Virus record (IMG/VR): IMGVR_UViG_3300006921_000009 | Location: 23,305 to 87,304 of that record | DNA length: 64,000 bases | DNA from: a virus | Direction: 5' to 3' (one strand) | Part shown: positions 721 through 14,843 of the stretch, piece by piece | Position numbering within the stretch: the stretch's first letter is position 1 | How the letters are laid out: each line of letters starts with the position of its first letter | Program-made: the position numbers and the translations under genes | The notes under the pieces: generated by a model | Seen by the model: only the letters and a program-made list of their open reading frames with translations | What the model was told of the DNA's origin: nothing | The model's database searches: none

Positions 721-1926
721 TTATAAAGTTTGGTGTCTGTAATTTCTATTAAATTCATACACAGTATCTAAATAGAGATTAGTTACTGCTAAAATACTTG
801 TATTATCTATATCTATAGTTTCCCAATTGATATTTGGAGCTACTTCTTCACTATCTAGATTAGCTATAACATTATCTAAAGTAATTTCAAAATGGACAGG
901 TTGTCCTCCCCATGTTAAAACCCTATCAGCTTGTTCTGAACCATTAAATGCTTCTGCTTGTGTTATTTTGGCTAAATACCTAGATATAGGGTGGCTAAAT
1001 CCTTCTGAATTATTACTTAAAGGGATAAAATTATAATTAACTTTGTTACCTAGTATAGATGTTAAAAGTCTTCTTTCTACTATTGCATCATCTAATTCCC
1101 ATTGTTCTTTTAGTACTAACCTAAGTGCCGGTACTATAGAATTATTAACATTAGATATTGCTACTGGGTCTCTTCTTGTTGCTCTATTTAAATCAATTCT
1201 ACTATTTATATCTCCTACTATCTCAGGTTGTAGTTCAGGATTTTCTGATAATACCTTTAGTAAACTATTTTTAATACGTTTTTTTACTCTATATTCTTCA
1301 AGTAGCTCCGAACAGCTACCATTATCGTTGTCTTTTTCATGTACTACATTTCTTATATGGTAATAAGGTCCACCACCTATTGATTCCCATACTGCATAAG
1401 TACGTAGCAACAATAAAGTTTCTGTTAAAAGTGATTCTGTAATACCTTCTACTGCCATATGTGTTGTAGCAAAAGCTAATTCGGTACCACCACCTAAACA
1501 CATAGTACGCCATGTAAAATACTCAGTTATATCTCCTCTAGTGCCGCTTCTATTATTGTGTGGATGTGCAAAGCCTAGCATTGCTTCTAATGTAGTAGCA
1601 CTTGTTCTTAGTGCTTTTAATTCTGGAGTAACTAACTTTGAAAAATCATCACTAATAGGTAAAGCTATATGATAATTTGTTATAGTATGGCTATCTCCTC
1701 TTCTGTTTGTAATTGTTCCTTCTGGAATCCTAACAACTAAACGCCAGGTAGGACGTACGTCACTATTATACCTCCAGGCTTCTGTTAAGTTATCTTCACA
1801 TAGCGACAAGTCCCAATCTCCTGGGAATATTGCTTCCGCTACACTTGTTATTAAGTCAATTTTTAGTTGACGTGGATCCTTTTCTTCGCTTACTACTTCT
1901 ATTTCTTCGTTTACTTGTTCTGTCAT
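721..1926 (-). CDS. Prokaryotic E2 (UBC-fold)-like conjugating protein with C-terminal extension
   Basis: HPH (121-123) followed by CLG (C143) resembles the HPN/HPH...C signature of E2 folds; lies between a Ubl-like gene and a JAB gene. Confidence 0.62.
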   Translation of the reverse strand: MTEQVNEEIEVVSEEKDPRQLKIDLITSVAEAIFPGDWDLSLCEDNLTEAWRYNSDVRPTWRLVVRIPEGTITNRRGDSHTITNYHIALPISDDFSKLVTPELKALRTSATTLEAMLGFAHPHNNRSGTRGDITEYFTWRTMCLGGGTELAFATTHMAVEGITESLLTETLLLLRTYAVWESIGGGPYYHIRNVVHEKDNDNGSCSELLEEYRVKKRIKNSLLKVLSENPELQPEIVGDINSRIDLNRATRRDPVAISNVNNSIVPALRLVLKEQWELDDAIVERRLLTSILGNKVNYNFIPLSNNSEGFSHPISRYLAKITQAEAFNGSEQADRVLTWGGQPVHFEITLDNVIANLDSEEVAPNINWETIDIDNTSILAVTNLYLDTVYEFNRNYRHQTL

Positions 1927-3527: not shown

Positions 3528-4503
3528 AAATCTCCGTTAAATAATCATTTAATTCTTCTAAACCATACAATTCTGCATAATCTGATGCATCTTTAGTACC
3601 TTCTGGCATAAAGAATACAGGTAAACTATGTTGTCCTGCTAACTTAGCAGCTGCAACTTTACCTGGTTCATCGTTATCATACAGTAACATCACGCTCTCA
3701 AACCGCTCTCTAAGATTGGTTACTAAGTTTGGTGATATTGTGTTTGATTCTGCTTGTGGTGCTACAGCAGGGATTTCTAATTGCGATAATACCGCAACAT
3801 CCTTTAATGACTTAGTAATAATTACTAAATCTCCATTTGCTTGTAGTTGTGACCAACCCTGTATAATATTTTCAGGGCAATTACTTCTCCATTTCAACTT
3901 TTTGTCTGCGTATGGTTGATAAATCTTCCATGCTTCTCTTTTGTCAGGTAATAATCCATTAAAATAGCCATACACATTACTACCACAGGCAGTATATACG
4001 CTATTAATGAAAAAACCAGACAGAGGATAAATATTAAATTTCTCTAAAGTTGCTGAATGTAAACCATATTTGTCATACCAGTATTCCTTATCGTTTTGGT
4101 TAAACTTACGTGTACAAACACGTATATCTACTACTTGTTCTGGAATATCTGTAATATTAAAATTTGATTTACTAACGGCTACCCTATCATTTGATAAGGT
4201 AACCGTAGACAATAAATTTAGATTAAAATCTCTGTTTACCATTTCTAAAGCCTGTATAAACGTAACTCCGTACTTTGTCTGAATATAATCAAAACAATCT
4301 CTTGTTTCTTGTTCAGAAAAATCTTTGTAAATTAGTTTATCCCCTGCTTTACATATACTGCAAGTAGGGTTTTTATCATTCCTTATTTCACTTCTAAAAG
4401 TTGCATAAAGTTTATTAAATGGACTACAGTAACTGTTAAATATGTCAAACTGATTGACTTTTTCCAATACATTAGCTTTGGTTAAGGGTTTCCTTACATC
4501 CAT
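3490..4503 (-). CDS. dnaG: DNA primase (TOPRIM), crAss type
   Basis: N-terminal zinc-binding-like region, IITKSLKDV and LLYDNDEPG TOPRIM motifs, KDASD. Confidence 0.85.
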   Translation of the reverse strand: MDVRKPLTKANVLEKVNQFDIFNSYCSPFNKLYATFRSEIRNDKNPTCSICKAGDKLIYKDFSEQETRDCFDYIQTKYGVTFIQALEMVNRDFNLNLLSTVTLSNDRVAVSKSNFNITDIPEQVVDIRVCTRKFNQNDKEYWYDKYGLHSATLEKFNIYPLSGFFINSVYTACGSNVYGYFNGLLPDKREAWKIYQPYADKKLKWRSNCPENIIQGWSQLQANGDLVIITKSLKDVAVLSQLEIPAVAPQAESNTISPNLVTNLRERFESVMLLYDNDEPGKVAAAKLAGQHSLPVFFMPEGTKDASDYAELYGLEELNDYLTEIYEKYSYNSQLGS

Positions 4504-8217: not shown

Positions 8218-9348
8218 TTACGATTGCCCGTCATTCTTAATACGATTTATAGTAGCAACTAGTGCTTCAAAATCATCTACATTAATAACGTTAAATCCTT
8301 CTTGTGATGTTCTTACCCACTTTTCTTCTACAGAATCCCTCACGTATGTCCTAATGGCTATACTGTGCTTTCCATCCATATCCTTACGTAACAATCTACC
8401 TAAAGTTTGTATTTGTTGTCTTTCTTTGGCGTATCTAGCCAATAAAATACCAAATACTAATCTCGGTAACGTTACTCCCTCATCAAATATCTTAGGTACA
8501 GACATAGTCCGTACATTAGTATCTGAGTCAGAGAAAAGTGCCAGGCGTTTTGCCCGTTGTTTTGCTGAGTGACCACTATGTATTGCTACACAGTCATCTC
8601 CTAGTTTAGCTGCAACATCTTCAGAGAATTTCTTGTTTAATGAAAATATGATACCATACTCATTAGGAAATAATCCTACGATGTCTTCTGCTGCTTGTAA
8701 CTTTTGTTCAGCTGAATATATTAGCCTGGAACGTTGTCCTATCTTCTTCCAAGATTGTTTTTGAAACTGTTGCCACGAGTAATCAATTTGTTCTGTTAGT
8801 TCTTTATACTTAGCTCTTTCAGCCGGTGTAAGATAAACAGGATAATTGATGATTGTGAAATCAGCTATAAAACCCTCCTCCTGAACATCTTCCATATTAA
8901 GCTCATCTACTACAGGAATGTAATAACTAAGCATACGTATTTGTTCTGGTGTTAAGGAAGCAGACAAACCAAGGATTCCTTTGGCTGTTACTTTTGTAAA
9001 AAATGGCATTTTGTTGTCAGTAGTTACGTGATGAACCTCATCAAGTACAACTGCGCTGTAGGAATTGCCATCCTGTTTTCTAATAGATGCGTAGCAAATG
9101 AATTTGCATTGCTTTAATAGATGTTCTTTGTTAAATTTAGTAAACTCTTCTTTAAAGTTAACTATAACAGCATCTGTAGGGCATACTATTAACACTTCTT
9201 CTTCAGGATATGCTTTTACAAACTGTTCTATTACTAGAAGTCCTGCAAAAGTTTTACCTGTCCCTGTAACGTACTTAAGGATACCACGGCATTGATTGCC
9301 TACCCATTTACGTAGTCCGTTACGGATCAGTTCTTCTCTCCTATTCAT
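8218..9348 (-). CDS. Superfamily 2 helicase (DExH)
   Basis: TGTGKT, LDEVHH, LSAS, FDEGV, QTLGRLLR motifs. Confidence 0.9.
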   Translation of the reverse strand: MNRREELIRNGLRKWVGNQCRGILKYVTGTGKTFAGLLVIEQFVKAYPEEEVLIVCPTDAVIVNFKEEFTKFNKEHLLKQCKFICYASIRKQDGNSYSAVVLDEVHHVTTDNKMPFFTKVTAKGILGLSASLTPEQIRMLSYYIPVVDELNMEDVQEEGFIADFTIINYPVYLTPAERAKYKELTEQIDYSWQQFQKQSWKKIGQRSRLIYSAEQKLQAAEDIVGLFPNEYGIIFSLNKKFSEDVAAKLGDDCVAIHSGHSAKQRAKRLALFSDSDTNVRTMSVPKIFDEGVTLPRLVFGILLARYAKERQQIQTLGRLLRKDMDGKHSIAIRTYVRDSVEEKWVRTSQEGFNVINVDDFEALVATINRIKNDGQS

Positions 9349-11339
9349 TAGTGTGTCCAGTATTTCTCAATACACGCTTCTGCTTTTAATGGTACTCTTC
9401 TACACCATACATCACCTGCTGATTCCATATTCCTTTGCAACATTTCTGCTGCATAAGTTTGATGTTTCTCTGTACTTTCTAAGATAATCTCATCGTGTAC
9501 AGTAGCTACAATCTTAATTTCATCTAGCAAACCTTTAGCTGTAAGCTCGTCTTGTATTAAAACTAGAGCAAACTTAGTGATACTTCCTGCTTCTCCTTGA
9601 ATAATATAATTCATAGCAGCACGTTCCATAGCACCCTTTAGTTTATTGACAGTCTTTTTATCTCCACGATAATCAGCAGCTCTAAGAGCTTTAATATCTT
9701 TGTAATAAAACTTACGTTTAGAAATTGTATCTATCAATATATAACCTTGGTTTAATGACTTAGCTTTACTACGCTCAAAGAACTCTAAGAGTCCAGGGAA
9801 AGCACTAAAGTAATCATTAAATACAGCTTCGCCTCTCTCTGCAGAAAGACCTAAGTTTTTAGCAATAGTGTGTCCATTACCACCATAAGCTAACGCAAAA
9901 CCAGCACCCTTAGCAATCTGACGTAAATCAGGTCTCTGCTTTTTAATGTTATCTAAATCAATACCCTCTAGTTCTTCAGGGAATAGTTTAGACGCAATAT
10001 AAGAGTGCATATCATTAAAATCTCCATCATAAAATGCTAGTAAATCCTTGTCCATAGACTTGTTTACTAATATAATACTTTCTTGACCAGAATAATCTGC
10101 GTTAATCATACTACAACCATCAGGTGCATCAAATGCATACCTAAATTGGTCTTGTCTAGGGTCTCCATGCTCATAATCCATATCTAAAGTAGACGGAATA
10201 TTTTGCTGATTAGGTGAACTAGAACTCATCCTACCTGTATTAACAAGTTGATTGTAGTTAGAGTGTATCCTTTTTGTCAAAGGATTAATGTGTTTTAAGA
10301 AATTCTCGCCAAATGTTGTGACAGCTTGTCTGTATTCCATTGTATTTAAGTACAATTTGACAAAATCTCTCACTTTATCTGACAAATCAGCAGTAACCAA
10401 TAAGGCTTCTACTTCTTTTGCCTCTACTGTGTAGCTCATCTTTTTGGTAGCTTTAGATTTTGCAACTGGGCAACAACCTAAGTACTTAAAGAACTCTACA
10501 ACTTGTTTAGACGATGACCATTGTATAGCACACGTAAAACCGGGGTTAAACATATCTAATTGTCTATCTACGAATGGTGAATCAGGATAATTTTCCATAA
10601 CGTGGGCATCTAATTGCCTTGTCTGGTCTTTAAACTTTATTAGATTCTTTTGATATGTATTTAACCATTTCTCAGAGTTAAAGTTCATACCATTAAATTC
10701 CATCTCGCCTAATACAGCTGTTACTCTAAATTCTAGTCTACATACATTGGCTAAATCTTTTTTCTCAAGTTCTACCAATTGCATATCTCTAATCTTTAGA
10801 GGTAACTCTATATCTTCTGCACCATATTTAATCTCCTCTGTTGTAAAAGGTCTATCTCCTATGGTAAGAAAACTAAGTCTAATAGCTTTATCTACTTCTA
10901 TGTCTAAATAACGTAGAATTAGAGCTTTTAGCCCGTACTCTAAATGATAACCATTGTGTAATAGCTTTTCTGCTATCATTGTATCATATAGAGCATTAAT
11001 ACGAACACCATACTTAGATAGTATGTGCTTGTACTCAAATTTAATGTTATGACCAACCAGAGTAATGTCTGGGTTAGTAAGAACAGGTAATAATAAGGTA
11101 ATGTCTACGTTTCTTGTATCAATTATGTACTGTACATCAACATCACCTATTTGCAACATAACTATATCAGAAGTGTGTGGGTCTAAGCCCTCTATGTGAA
11201 ACCACTTGTTGTATTTTCTCGTTGTTTCAATATCCAATCCGAGCAGGGTTCTAGTGTTACAATAGGTCACACATTCTTCTATAGTCGCTAATTCATAAGG
11301 CGTATCTATGCTAGTTTGGTTTGTTACCAATTTAATCAT
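9348..11339 (-). CDS. polA: Family A DNA polymerase with 3'-5' exonuclease domain
   Basis: Exonuclease motifs LDIET, GHNIKFE, YGAED; TGRMSSSSPNQQNIP; motif A ADYSGQE, motif B RQIAKGAGFALAYG, motif C VHDE. Confidence 0.95.
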   Translation of the reverse strand: MIKLVTNQTSIDTPYELATIEECVTYCNTRTLLGLDIETTRKYNKWFHIEGLDPHTSDIVMLQIGDVDVQYIIDTRNVDITLLLPVLTNPDITLVGHNIKFEYKHILSKYGVRINALYDTMIAEKLLHNGYHLEYGLKALILRYLDIEVDKAIRLSFLTIGDRPFTTEEIKYGAEDIELPLKIRDMQLVELEKKDLANVCRLEFRVTAVLGEMEFNGMNFNSEKWLNTYQKNLIKFKDQTRQLDAHVMENYPDSPFVDRQLDMFNPGFTCAIQWSSSKQVVEFFKYLGCCPVAKSKATKKMSYTVEAKEVEALLVTADLSDKVRDFVKLYLNTMEYRQAVTTFGENFLKHINPLTKRIHSNYNQLVNTGRMSSSSPNQQNIPSTLDMDYEHGDPRQDQFRYAFDAPDGCSMINADYSGQESIILVNKSMDKDLLAFYDGDFNDMHSYIASKLFPEELEGIDLDNIKKQRPDLRQIAKGAGFALAYGGNGHTIAKNLGLSAERGEAVFNDYFSAFPGLLEFFERSKAKSLNQGYILIDTISKRKFYYKDIKALRAADYRGDKKTVNKLKGAMERAAMNYIIQGEAGSITKFALVLIQDELTAKGLLDEIKIVATVHDEIILESTEKHQTYAAEMLQRNMESAGDVWCRRVPLKAEACIEKYWTH

Positions 11340-12968: not shown

Positions 12969-13078
12969 TTTCTTGTTTAATTTGGTTTAATTAATGCAAA
13001 TAAAATTACAAAGCGCAGTAGTCTACTGATTCCCTAAAGGAACAAACTATTTAATTTATCGCTGGTAATTTTAATGTT

Positions 13079-13354
13079 TTAGAATTGAGATACTAAGTAC
13101 AATGTACCTAATAGAGCAAGAACAGCACCTACACTAGCCATAACGTTACGTTTTGCTGGTGTTTTACGTTCTGCACAACAATCTTTTGCTTCCTCACGAT
13201 TTAACTCTTGTCTGGCAATAAAGTCAGCCATTTCATCACAAGCGTAATGTACAGCTGTTGTGTTGTTACTCTTACGTCCCATTGCAGTTAATCTATCTTT
13301 GATAATCTCCAAAGACTCCTGTGACGGTGTGTAAATTCTTCTTTTGTTTTGCAT
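13079..13354 (-). CDS. Hypothetical protein with C-terminal transmembrane anchor
   Basis: Hydrophobic tail VMASVGAVLALLGTLYLVSQF. Confidence 0.6.
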   Translation of the reverse strand: MQNKRRIYTPSQESLEIIKDRLTAMGRKSNNTTAVHYACDEMADFIARQELNREEAKDCCAERKTPAKRNVMASVGAVLALLGTLYLVSQF

Positions 13355-13372
13355 TCTATATTTATTTGTGGA

Positions 13373-13846
13373 TTACTGTTTAATTAGGTACATTAAATTA
13401 CCTGTAAGTTGTGTGAACGTATCTGCTGTAAAATTTGTTACTGTTATACAGGCAGGTCCACCGTACCAGAATATGAACTCTATTTCACAATCTGTGTCTA
13501 AACTATAAGTATTAAATTGGTACCCTACTACTTCTCCTATTTTATTAACTACAGGCTTACTGTAGCTTACTAAATAAAAAAGATGGTTTACACATTTATA
13601 GTCTTTATTAAAGTCCATTTGCATAATGTAGGATATACCTTTATCTTCTACTATAGAAAAAGTAGTTGGTCCCTCTACGAGGACATCTAATAGCAAATTC
13701 TCTGCTATTCTATGATCTAAATTTTCTGATTCTGTAATTTGATACTGTGTAAATTGTACTTGTCCATACAAATTGTTGTTTGCACAAAGCATTAGTATAA
13801 AACTTCCCGCAAGGAAAAGTAATAATTTAAATGTTGATTCTTTCAT
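13373..13846 (-). CDS. Secreted hypothetical protein
   Basis: Signal-like N-terminus ending LYG-Q, typical of Bacteroidota Sec substrates with Gln at +1; beta-rich body. Confidence 0.6.
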   Translation of the reverse strand: MKESTFKLLLFLAGSFILMLCANNNLYGQVQFTQYQITESENLDHRIAENLLLDVLVEGPTTFSIVEDKGISYIMQMDFNKDYKCVNHLFYLVSYSKPVVNKIGEVVGYQFNTYSLDTDCEIEFIFWYGGPACITVTNFTADTFTQLTGNLMYLIKQ

Positions 13847-13891
13847 AATCTTTCTTTTAATGATTAATAATTAATTGATGATATAATAGCC

Positions 13892-14068
13892 TTGAGAGTT
13901 ACTGATTAGCTAGAAATTTCAATGTTATAGCGAGTATGGGTCTGATCCTATCCTACAAACACTAAAGCTGGGCAAGCCCATCTGCAGTTCTACTTTAGCA
14001 TAAGAGTTTAGCGATACTCCGATCACTGACTTCTCCATTCTACCGTTACTAGTAATAGTAACTCTCAA
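13892..14068 (-). ncRNA. Candidate structured RNA with long closing stem and pseudoknot
   Basis: Perfect 12-bp inverted repeat TTGAGAGTTACT/AGTAACTCTCAA, crossing stems GAGTAT/ATACTC and TGATC/GATCA, G(CUUG)C tetraloop on the minus strand. Confidence 0.45.
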
Positions 14069-14255
14069 TATTTTAATTCTAAGGTTTAATAAAAATAGAG
14101 TATATAATAGTAATCTGCCCTTTCTAGGATAGATTAAAAATTACTGTGTCCTGTTCAACTCCACTGTAGAAATTGAATCAGTTATCCTCTATACGAACTC
14201 TTGGGTTAGTGCACTAACTCTTGGGTCCTCACATGCAGTGTTTTAGCCGGTGATA

Positions 14256-14477
14256 CTAAAGGAGATCTTTGTTATCCTTTATTCCTTTGGCTGAGGTCAT
14301 ATGTTTAACCTGGTCTTTTAATTCTTTACCAATTACATTTCTCCAGTATCCTTCTCCAAATAGAGATTGCTTACCTGATTCTGTAACGGCTTTAATTTGG
14401 TCTTCTAATACTTCTACGTGGGCATCAATTGCATCTATTAAAAATGCAAGTTCAAACCCGTTAAATTTACTCCTCAT
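14256..14477 (-). CDS. Hypothetical protein
   Basis: 73-aa ORF overlapping the upstream ORF, as in an operon. Confidence 0.6.
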   Translation of the reverse strand: MRSKFNGFELAFLIDAIDAHVEVLEDQIKAVTESGKQSLFGEGYWRNVIGKELKDQVKHMTSAKGIKDNKDLL

Positions 14478-14766
14478 TTCCTAAAGTTTTAAATAATTCA
14501 TTCATAAGGTCGTCTGCGTGTATTGCATAACTTTCTCCTATAAAATCTACTTCGTGTTCTAAATACTCATATTTACTATGCTCGTTAGATTGTTTTTCTA
14601 CTAATTTAATTAGTACCTCTATTAGTACGTCTTTATTAGTATACATAACCATATCCATACTCGCATTTTCTATTACAAATACTTGTCCACCTTTTGGTTT
14701 CCAATATGGTGTATCTGTATCTGAGTAGTTTTCATAATACTGTGCTGTTATTCTAATATCTGCCAT
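14467..14766 (-). CDS. Hypothetical protein
   Basis: 99-aa ORF containing QYYENY...YWKPKGG. Confidence 0.7.
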   Translation of the reverse strand: MADIRITAQYYENYSDTDTPYWKPKGGQVFVIENASMDMVMYTNKDVLIEVLIKLVEKQSNEHSKYEYLEHEVDFIGESYAIHADDLMNELFKTLGNEE

Positions 14767-14843
14767 ATGTTTTAAATTAAACCCCCAGGATAAAACATCC
14801 CAGGGCTAATATGAATAATATGACTTGGATAGTATCTAATACT

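Follow-up and report, generated by a model that had tools for sequence, protein, structure and literature searches.

Described systems and the locus under study

The prohead RNA (pRNA) of phage phi29 is about 174 nucleotides (nt) long, and among its relatives the conservation of the sequence is very low while that of the secondary structure is high. The RNase III hairpins of phage early messenger RNAs (mRNAs), such as the R sites of T7 and the N-leader and sib hairpins of lambda, drift in sequence and keep their pairing, and in the PeSL cassettes of T4-type phages short stem-loops flank protein genes. 6S RNA and 6S-Flavo (RF00013 and RF01685) are rods of about 180 nt, largely double-stranded. 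In phi14:2, a marine crAss-like phage of Cellulophaga, long intergenic regions of unknown function out-transcribe most genes (Drobysheva et al., bioRxiv 10.1101/2020.03.07.982082). Here we analysed a window of 64,000 nt, corresponding to bases 23305-87304 of the 87.3-kb IMG/VR virus record IMGVR_UViG_3300006921_000009 (estimated completeness ~91%), and in it an intergenic element of 177 nt, a long imperfect hairpin hereafter called the rod. Its comparison with a relative, contig L006, shows the element to be real, conserved, structured and non-coding, within a narrow lineage of marine crAss-like phages, and it is probably a small structured RNA of a new family.

The element resembles each of the described systems in part. 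Like pRNA it is phage-encoded, of similar length, and keeps its structure where the sequence has been lost; however, pRNA has a three-way junction and two loops interlocking between copies and belongs to phi29-like packaging motors, whereas the element is an unbranched rod. With the RNase III hairpins it shares an imperfect double-stranded hairpin between co-oriented phage cistrons, but these hairpins measure about 50-100 nt, while the rod reaches ~180 nt and has an invariant tip and a duplicated leader of its own. The likeness to 6S RNA concerns the size and the double-stranded nature of the rod, the link with Bacteroidetes and a length more conserved than the sequence, and the function of 6S RNA as a decoy of RNA polymerase (RNAP) would fit a conserved unpaired module carried on a rod. 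Here, however, the unpaired module is a one-sided bulge of 11-12 nt located 12 nt from the tip, and the large central bubble of 6S RNA, open on both strands, is missing; the covariance models of 6S, 6S-Flavo and Bacteroidales-1 gave no match at E<=10 in either phage. What recalls the PeSL cassettes is a small cassette set between repeats of a leader or promoter, at a point where the neighbouring genes of relatives are swapped, but the cargo would in this case be the 180-nt hairpin itself. Finally, phi14:2 is also a marine Bacteroidetes crAss-like phage with long non-coding gaps among co-oriented genes; unlike the one studied here, its gap is found at the left end of the genome and not upstream of PolA, no sequence similarity exists, and no comparable rod was found in its 1.7-kb gap encoding long non-coding RNA.

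The source of the window is, as far as its sequence tells, a marine crAss-like phage of a Bacteroidetes host, because of its polymerase matches, the marine metagenomes from which its relatives come and the motif TAnnTTTG before its late genes. The family-A DNA polymerase PolA (9348-11339, minus strand) is 30-34% identical to its best matches among phage records, the first being a Leptolyngbya cyanophage and the others mostly gut crAss-like phages. The protein search returned hundreds of relatives in marine metagenomes, several of them on contigs of 80-105 kb and the closest (P0002 and P0004-P0009) with a PolA identity of 79-95%, and TAnnTTTG, the -7 motif of Bacteroidetes, precedes the plus-strand late genes. 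The rod sits 2.5 kb upstream of PolA, in a gap of 409 nt (13847-14255) between two open reading frames (ORFs) of the minus strand; this strand, which is that of the flanking genes, is called sense in the following.

Conservation of the rod and of its tip

Scans of viral and metagenome contigs guided by PolA returned a single independent relative covering the element, L006, whose PolA is 89% identical (the intergenic region of a TARA contig, L088, is identical to that of L006). In this relative an orthologous rod, an unbranched hairpin of 182-184 nt, occupies the same position (4249-4432); its fold has a z-score of -3.57 and none of 200 shuffled sequences folded as well. The two neighbourhoods are syntenic and strongly diverged: the small ORFs upstream are 50% and 37% identical, the downstream ORFs are not homologous and the ORF that follows them is 67% identical. 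Amid this near-saturated DNA, one block of 26 nt inside the element aligns at 96%. It falls at the tip, which in both hairpins consists of the same 24-25 nt bar one inserted base, that is the bulge AGAACUGCAGA(A) and the mini-hairpin UGGGCUUGCCCA; the bulge of L006 is 12 nt long and reads AGAACUGCAGAA. Such identity of the core in saturated DNA points to purifying selection.

The closing stems of the two phages differ in sequence, UUGACGACUUAGC/GCUGAGUCGUCAG in L006 versus UUGAGAGUUACU/AGUAACUCUCAA in the window, and each is complementary to its own partner. Both open with a common AUUGA, and two U.G pairs are formed on the sense strand in the stem of L006, where a 4-bp UAAU/GUUA helix also replaces the sub-apical 10-bp helix of the window. 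In each phage the arms are ~75% Watson-Crick complementary, with 61 matches. When the rods were aligned with guidance from the structure, 52 pairs were shared, of which 24 are the same in both phages, 4 differ on one side and 24 differ on both; this alignment was fitted to the folds and therefore shows the pattern without being a test of it, and an alignment of the two rods by MAFFT and RNAalifold was not consistent with the structure.

Partial variants of the element were also found on contigs of four other marine runs. A marine contig of 6.4 kb (run X4), ~88% identical, spans the whole gap and differs from the window by nine listed indels and one more beyond the listing; of the nine, eight fall within the rod, each of one or two bases, and none in the parts of the flanking ORFs. 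In two further runs, short contigs retain closing stem, tip and flanks but depart from the window in the inner arms; short contigs of run X8 have the apical core. The pattern emerging from these sequences is that of a fixed tip, of arms which drift quickly and are still paired, and of a length that is near-constant.

A small protein gene was ruled out as an explanation. The ORFs that can be read over the element start differently and have different lengths (47 amino acids (aa) with a TTG start in the window, 28 aa with another start in L006), the conserved core contains a 1-nt indel between the two phages, and the eight one- or two-base indels of the ~88% relative would repeatedly shift the frame. 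The element is accordingly non-coding on the comparative evidence, and no conserved peptide is encoded. A first interpretation of this DNA, made from its letters and hereafter called the sequence-only reading, had placed the element outside ORFs; this holds for real genes, but the spurious 47-aa ORF (13925-14068, minus strand) does overlap it.

As regards distribution, the patterns of the core and of a second conserved hairpin of the same gap (block A, described below) were found in the viral contigs of IMG/VR only on that of L006, which holds a single copy of the core. The core pattern gave five single matches among 185,579 prokaryote genomes, all in unrelated Proteobacteria and Verrucomicrobia, which is about the number expected by chance. 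Fuzzy searches in all 240 fetched loci gave no further homologue, blastn gave no match among phage GenBank records, and the element is absent from all 68 loci carrying the family of the 99-aa protein encoded upstream. By these searches the element is restricted to a narrow lineage. Rod-like hairpins of four distant relatives (L017, L096, L012 and L013) were rejected as homologues, having no sequence or tip in common with it.

Comparison with known RNA families

The sequence-only reading had found no known family for the element and proposed a pseudoknotted RNA, either a ribozyme, a riboswitch-like leader or a protein-sponging RNA. The lack of a known family was borne out: the 4227 covariance models of Rfam 15 gave no match at gathering threshold in the whole window, the only two matches at E<=10 in 13700-14400 are at chance level and both outside the element, and in L006 nothing but noise with E>3 was obtained. 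What also stood is the proposal of an unrecognised structured element, which is absent from Rfam and found in the same position in a relative, with its tip kept and a closing stem that has been rewritten and is yet complementary.

The pseudoknot fared less well. The segments GAGTAT/ATACTC and GTCTGATC/GATCA..GAC do exist and would cross, but a pseudoknot is not supported: the crossing segments use the same two strands, and the linkers left between them measure no more than 2 nt (13938-39) and 1 nt (14020); in the centroid fold the GAGTAT/ATACTC helix is part of the nested rod; and the unbranched rod of L006 has no crossing helix. In the folding model the two helices are better read as alternative registers of the same strands. 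For a ribozyme, no catalytic core was matched at E<=10 in either phage (hammerhead, twister, pistol, hatchet and HDV-like models), and the fold is an unbranched rod. For a riboswitch-like leader, the element does lie upstream of a gene, but riboswitch models likewise gave no match at E<=10 in either phage, this gene is not homologous between the two phages, and what is conserved is a single apical module of 24-25 nt and not a multi-helix core, with no expression platform. A pseudoknotted ribozyme or riboswitch-like leader is for these reasons hardly credible. A protein-sponging RNA, on the other hand, is possible and comes near to the explanation that we favour below.

Two observations on the distant relative L017, whose PolA is 46% identical, are reported here in their own right. 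Its intergenic rod of 160 nt (2064-2223) has an energy of -50.7 kcal/mol and a z-score of -5.1, and ~100 nt downstream of it (2329-2410) there is a core resembling that of hammerheads, CUGAUGAG...CGAAAC...GUC, which reaches 24 bits with the models Hammerhead_3 and RAGATH-1-hammerhead and falls short of the gathering threshold of each.

Fold of the rod and chance level

The features from which the element had first been recognised are present in the sequence. The perfect 12-bp inverted repeat (13892-13903/14057-14068) extends inward to a total of 19 pairs with two one-base bulges, the CTAAAG/CTTTAG stem carries on the coding (minus) strand the UGGGCUUGCCCA hairpin with its CUUG loop, and the element is richer in GC than its flanks (0.41-0.44 vs 0.23-0.30). 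Taken alone, these features of the window are unremarkable and constitute weak evidence, because a single perfect repeat of 12 bp is expected by chance in 64 kb and the fold has a z-score of about -2. Perfect inverted repeats of at least 12 bp separated by 3-200 nt number one in the window, against a mean of 1.03 in 30 first-order Markov simulations that kept the base-to-base transition frequencies. The minimum free energy (MFE) of the rod is -48.2 kcal/mol on the sense strand and -42.9 on the antisense one, and it ranks only sixth in the 87-kb genome when local folds of 110-230 nt with a single hairpin are compared. The most stable local hairpin of the genome is a different one of 138 nt (G000 1184-1321, plus strand, outside the window), with -57 kcal/mol, located inside a coding region just past a TAnnTTTG promoter.

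We also considered whether the element could act as DNA, that is as a cruciform or single-stranded DNA (ssDNA) hairpin serving as replication origin or recombination site, or as a hairpin promoter for a virion RNAP in the style of phage N4. Its AT-rich flanks and its place in the replication arm, 2.5 kb upstream of PolA, would suit this role, as would the exchange of the downstream gene between the two phages, which marks a recombination boundary; the virion RNAP of phi14:2 uses denatured DNA as template, with early promoters that are not known. Moreover, over both rods the oppositions of G.U type and of A.C type are equal in number, as expected of a constraint neutral to the strand. Cruciform extrusion, however, requires near-perfect repeats, and a DNA cruciform is disfavoured because the arms are too imperfect, being only ~75% complementary and interrupted in each rod by some 20 gap positions. 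While the RNA folds reach -48 to -50 kcal/mol, the same stretches as ssDNA have only -17 to -21.5 kcal/mol (z-scores -1.3 and -2.5). The rod contains no iterons, the cumulative GC skew shows no local turn, and the tip motif, like the whole element, occurs once in the 87-kb genome, unlike the repeated promoters of N4. A promoter of that type (5-7 bp, 3-nt loop, repeated) was in fact rejected, the tip having 4-5 bp, a loop of 4 nt and a single occurrence. An element acting at the DNA level is in our opinion quite improbable.

A duplicated leader and the strand of the element

The rod is flanked by two copies of a leader of about 50 nt, one just upstream of it and one leading into the downstream ORF. 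The copies align without gaps with a score of 42, against a null of 25 +/- 4.3, and none of 300 shuffles reached this value; their spacing is 221-222. In this alignment the first bases of the rod, TTGAGAG, stand opposite ATGAAAG, the start of the 157-aa ORF. The duplication is present likewise in L006, where 2 of 300 shuffles reached the score, and CTATTATAT occurs twice in the 87-kb genome, both times in these copies. The leader duplication and the position of the rod at a start codon therefore suggest that in both phages the rod fills a cistron slot on the minus strand. A weaker likeness was found with the leader TTAACCTTTAAAT...TCATCACAATG which precedes two ORFs starting at 18617 and 19941 (1 to 13 of 300 shuffles reached the score). 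In the recurrent form TTATTAACCTTTAAAT, followed by 8-9 nt and ATG, this leader is located on the minus strand at 19953-19965 and 18626-18638, and the rod is flanked by diverged copies of it. The leader could be a promoter for near-leaderless mRNAs or a shuffling cassette.

A sense-strand RNA fits because RNA genes on this strand are carried by the same arm of relatives and because intergenic regions are transcribed in phi14:2. In distant relatives the equivalent arm upstream of PolA encodes a sense-strand transfer-messenger RNA (tmRNA), transfer RNAs (tRNAs) and a group I intron, while in the whole window neither tRNA nor tmRNA was found. The RNA genes of these relatives lie on the PolA strand (L011 3042-3407, L013 4735-5112, L097 4338-4595, and also L012, L017, L019, L026 and L027) and comprise a tmRNA in two phages, a group I intron in a gap of 1.2 kb and several tRNAs.

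An independent small RNA gene could in principle be encoded on the plus strand, antisense to the flanking genes, with TGATATAAT (13879-13887) as its promoter, 4-5 nt before the base of the rod, and with the closing stem followed by UAUUUUAAUU as terminator. In both the window and L006 an exact TATAAT does stand equally far from the base of the rod, the U-rich run follows the rod in both phages, the hairpin of block A is more stable on this strand by means of G.U pairs, and one X8 variant, a partial sequence, has apparently C13947 changed to T, which keeps a T.G wobble only there. The TATAAT and the U-rich run constitute nevertheless weak evidence for an antisense gene, because they are the reverse complements of the duplicated sense leader (CTATTATAT... 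and its A-rich tail), so that their conservation is already explained. Promoters of Bacteroidetes hosts read TAnnTTTG, as seen before the late genes, and not TATAAT; all the genes, as well as the RNA genes of the relatives in this arm, are on the other strand; the loop would be CAAG instead of the stable CUUG; and the promoter and terminator scan lists nothing here. We consider a plus-strand gene improbable. The same scan (13300-14800) returned no terminator-like sites, and an intrinsic terminator was rejected, the rod being followed on the sense strand by GGCUAUUAUAUC.

The duplicated leader is also what would be expected of a selfish or neutral palindrome, similar to a miniature inverted-repeat transposable element (MITE) or borne by a cassette, that came together with the leader copy and whose complementarity is maintained by intramolecular gene conversion. 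The direct repeats of ~50 nt flanking the element, its location at a gene-swap boundary, a stability which is not exceptional for the genome and the narrow clade would all agree with this origin. Yet the element is single-copy in the genome, and MITEs keep their ends and vary in the middle, whereas here the tip is invariant and the ends are variable. It is also syntenic and of near-constant length (177 vs 182-184 nt) although the neighbouring proteins are 37-67% identical, and the identity of the core, already discussed, suggests purifying selection. A palindrome without function is on these grounds very improbable; a palindromic mobile element of the MITE type proper was rejected, in view of the single copy and of flanking repeats that are leader copies of ~50 nt and not a short target-site duplication.

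Proposed role of the rod

The explanation that we favour, with a probability of roughly 0.4, is that the element is a minus-strand non-coding RNA in which the duplex provides a scaffold or stability and a trans-acting partner, most probably a protein, recognises the invariant tip. According to this model the replication arm, which by analogy probably consists of early or middle genes, would have an RNA cistron on its gene strand; the cistron would carry its own copy of the ~50-nt leader, with the rod starting at the position of the start codon of the next ORF, and its transcript would fold into one imperfect hairpin of ~180 nt. The arms would drift by substitutions and indels of 1-2 nt while selection holds a complementarity of ~75% and a length of ~180 nt, and the sequence would be fixed only at the tip, where the single-stranded bulge of 11-12 nt, AGAACUGCAGA(A), is stacked on the UGGGCUUGCCCA mini-hairpin. 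This tip would be the recognition module for the partner, most probably an RNA-binding protein of the phage or of the host, and the long duplex the scaffold or stability element, possibly also a substrate of RNase III. The model is supported because L006 has an orthologous rod with the same tip and a different stem amid diverged neighbours, and because the RNA fold is far stronger than the ssDNA fold. The anatomy, the pattern of conservation, the non-coding status, the leader duplication and the absence from Rfam we take as established; that the element acts as RNA, from this strand, from a transcription start of its own and by binding a partner is what we infer from them.

Several points weigh against this explanation. 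The comparison rests on two independent full sequences. The fold of the window element has nearly the same z-score on either strand (-2.05 sense, -2.07 antisense), and comparably stable rods, several of them better ranked, are found inside coding regions of the same genome. In L006 the energies of the two strands are nearly equal (-50.0 kcal/mol sense, -48.9 antisense), so that fold energies favour the gene strand only slightly; the count of oppositions over both rods, 5 of G.U type and 5 of A.C type, picks neither a strand nor RNA; and block A folds better on the plus strand, as a near-continuous helix with G.U pairs. No motif of the Bacteroidetes type TAnnTTTG precedes the rod, whose leader is a putative promoter. 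As for the partner, no Pfam or PHROG match indicates an RNA-binding function in the neighbouring ORFs, and no partner protein was found.

The closest rival, although unlikely in itself, is a processing or stability hairpin acting in cis: the rod would belong to a polycistronic mRNA on the same strand and have no function in trans, being cut by RNase III or another endonuclease or acting as an exonuclease block, and would, as the R sites do in the early mRNA of T7, set how stable the flanking cistrons are and in what dosage they occur, with the conserved tip as the site of a nuclease or of a helper protein. It is known that a mostly double-stranded stem of ~60 bp is a natural substrate of RNase III. 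Such a site calls for a largely double-stranded RNA of about 20 bp or more, placed between the cistrons of a single transcript, and both the structure and the position of the rod fit. Co-oriented ORFs enclose the element, most of the larger gaps of the arm contain hairpins followed by A/U-rich leaders, and the comparative evidence for a structured sense RNA agrees equally well with this role. On the other side, intercistronic hairpins elsewhere in the genome have only a third of the length of the element, and a simple processing site needs neither a duplicated leader of its own with the rod in the place of a coding sequence nor the conservation of a length near 180 nt.

A more specific version of the favoured explanation, namely a new family of ~180-nt rod RNAs with their own leader in which the invariant tip captures a host or phage protein during infection, as a decoy or scaffold, is doubtful on present evidence; the captured protein could be, for example, RNAP, a nuclease or a defence sensor. 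Other functional ideas were tried and set aside. The best non-self duplex of the tip in the phage genome (61791-61816, on the non-coding strand of a late gene) reaches -31.2 kcal/mol, compared with -24.8 to -27.7 for eight shuffles, and is not conserved in the record of L006. The CTGCAG sequence is over-represented (44 observed vs 8.4 expected), which excludes an avoided restriction site, and a mimic of CRISPR repeats had no support, as no arrayed matches occur in contigs of prokaryote genomes. Cofolding of two copies, considered for a homodimer through the palindromic bulge, gives a domain-swapped duplex only.

crAss-like phages are among the most abundant phages, and their non-coding RNAs are almost unstudied; in the one transcriptome of a marine member, strongly expressed intergenic RNAs without a known function were seen. 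The element offers a small and testable candidate, with a variable double-stranded scaffold, an invariant tip of 24-25 nt and its own leader. If it were expressed and bound a protein, it would add a family to the known phage RNAs and give access to the control of genes in phages of Bacteroidetes; otherwise it would be an ordinary intercistronic hairpin of a narrow, uncultured lineage. With two full sequences, its present value is that of a lead.

Features of the gap and of the surrounding arm

The coordinates of the features of the gap are collected in Table 1.

Table 1. Features of the rod and of its flanks (window coordinates)
Feature	Coordinates	Strand	Remarks
73-aa ORF	14256-14477	-	upstream neighbour of the gap
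Block A, second conserved hairpin of the same gap	14193-14226 (L006 3948-3979)		just past the stop of the 73-aa ORF
Leader copy 1	14062-14110	-	~50 nt just upstream of the rod; opens with CTATTATAT; duplicates the leader of the downstream ORF
Element, long imperfect hairpin (rod)	13892-14068, 177 nt	- (favoured, unproven)	~58-59 pairs; strand of the flanking genes
Closing stem, 5' half on the sense strand	14049-14068	-	first bases (A)UUGAGAG align with AUGAAAG, start context of the next gene
Sub-apical 10-bp helix AUGCUAAAGU/GCUUUAGUGU (sense)	13959-14001	-	includes CUAAAG/CUUUAG; closes the bulge and the mini-hairpin
Conserved apical core	13968-13992	-	only block of the rod that BLAST aligns between both phages; 25/26 positions, one 1-nt indel
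Unpaired bulge AGAACUGCAGA, 11 nt	13981-13991	-	on the 5' side of the tip; left without partner by the MFE fold of either phage
Apical mini-hairpin UGGGCUUGCCCA	13969-13980	-	4 pairs, CUUG loop; identical in L006
Closing stem, 3' half on the sense strand	13892-13913	-	part of the 19-bp stem; L006 counterpart GCUGAGUCGUCAGU
Leader copy 2	13840-13889	-	just downstream of the rod, runs into the ATG of the 157-aa ORF; GCTATTATAT conserved in L006
157-aa ORF	13373-13846; ATG 13846-13844	-	downstream neighbour; N-terminus signal-peptide-like

Block A has an outer helix that covaries between the two phages (GGAC/GUUC vs GAAA/UUUC) and an inner one (GUUAG/CUAAC vs GGAU/AUCC), and in the sense reading these helices surround an invariant CCAAGA/CCAAGA symmetric internal loop of 6x6 nt. 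Its energy is -8.0 kcal/mol sense vs -12.0 antisense in the window (antisense z-score -2.3) and -5.7 sense vs -13.6 antisense in L006 (antisense z-score -3.8). As duplex DNA the same block would read as two direct CCAAGAG repeats placed 18-20 bp apart.

Concerning the neighbouring genes, the downstream ORF has been replaced between the two phages (window 13373-13846, L006 4465-4914): the proteins of 157 aa and 149 aa have no detectable similarity, both have N-termini resembling signal peptides or lipoproteins, and the genes on either side are orthologous. The 99-aa protein encoded upstream (14467-14766, MADIRITxQYYENY...) is of a family whose members occur on 68 IMG/VR contigs, very different in size (4-326 kb); Pfam gave no match for it, and its PHROG match, of unknown function, is weak and above threshold. 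Further along the arm, the intergenic gap of 110 nt at 12969-13078 (L006 5224-5299) is 83% identical, far above the surrounding genes, and contains two small conserved hairpins, TTCCTTTAGGGAA and CAGTAGACTACTG. As regards PolA itself, in two relatives that are 82-83% identical, L009 (918-3314) and L089 (748-3259), the match extends over 2.4-2.5 kb rather than 2.0 kb, which suggests an insertion in the polymerase gene (an intron, an intein or a homing-endonuclease gene).

Most gaps of the minus-strand arm consist of a short GC-rich hairpin, then a T-rich run and an A/T-rich leader, as seen for example ahead of the ORFs that start (upper coordinate) at 1926, 11597, 14766, 18617 and 20319. These hairpins look terminator-like, and several of them have a common stem, AGGGGA/TCCCCT, which hints at a specific recognition.

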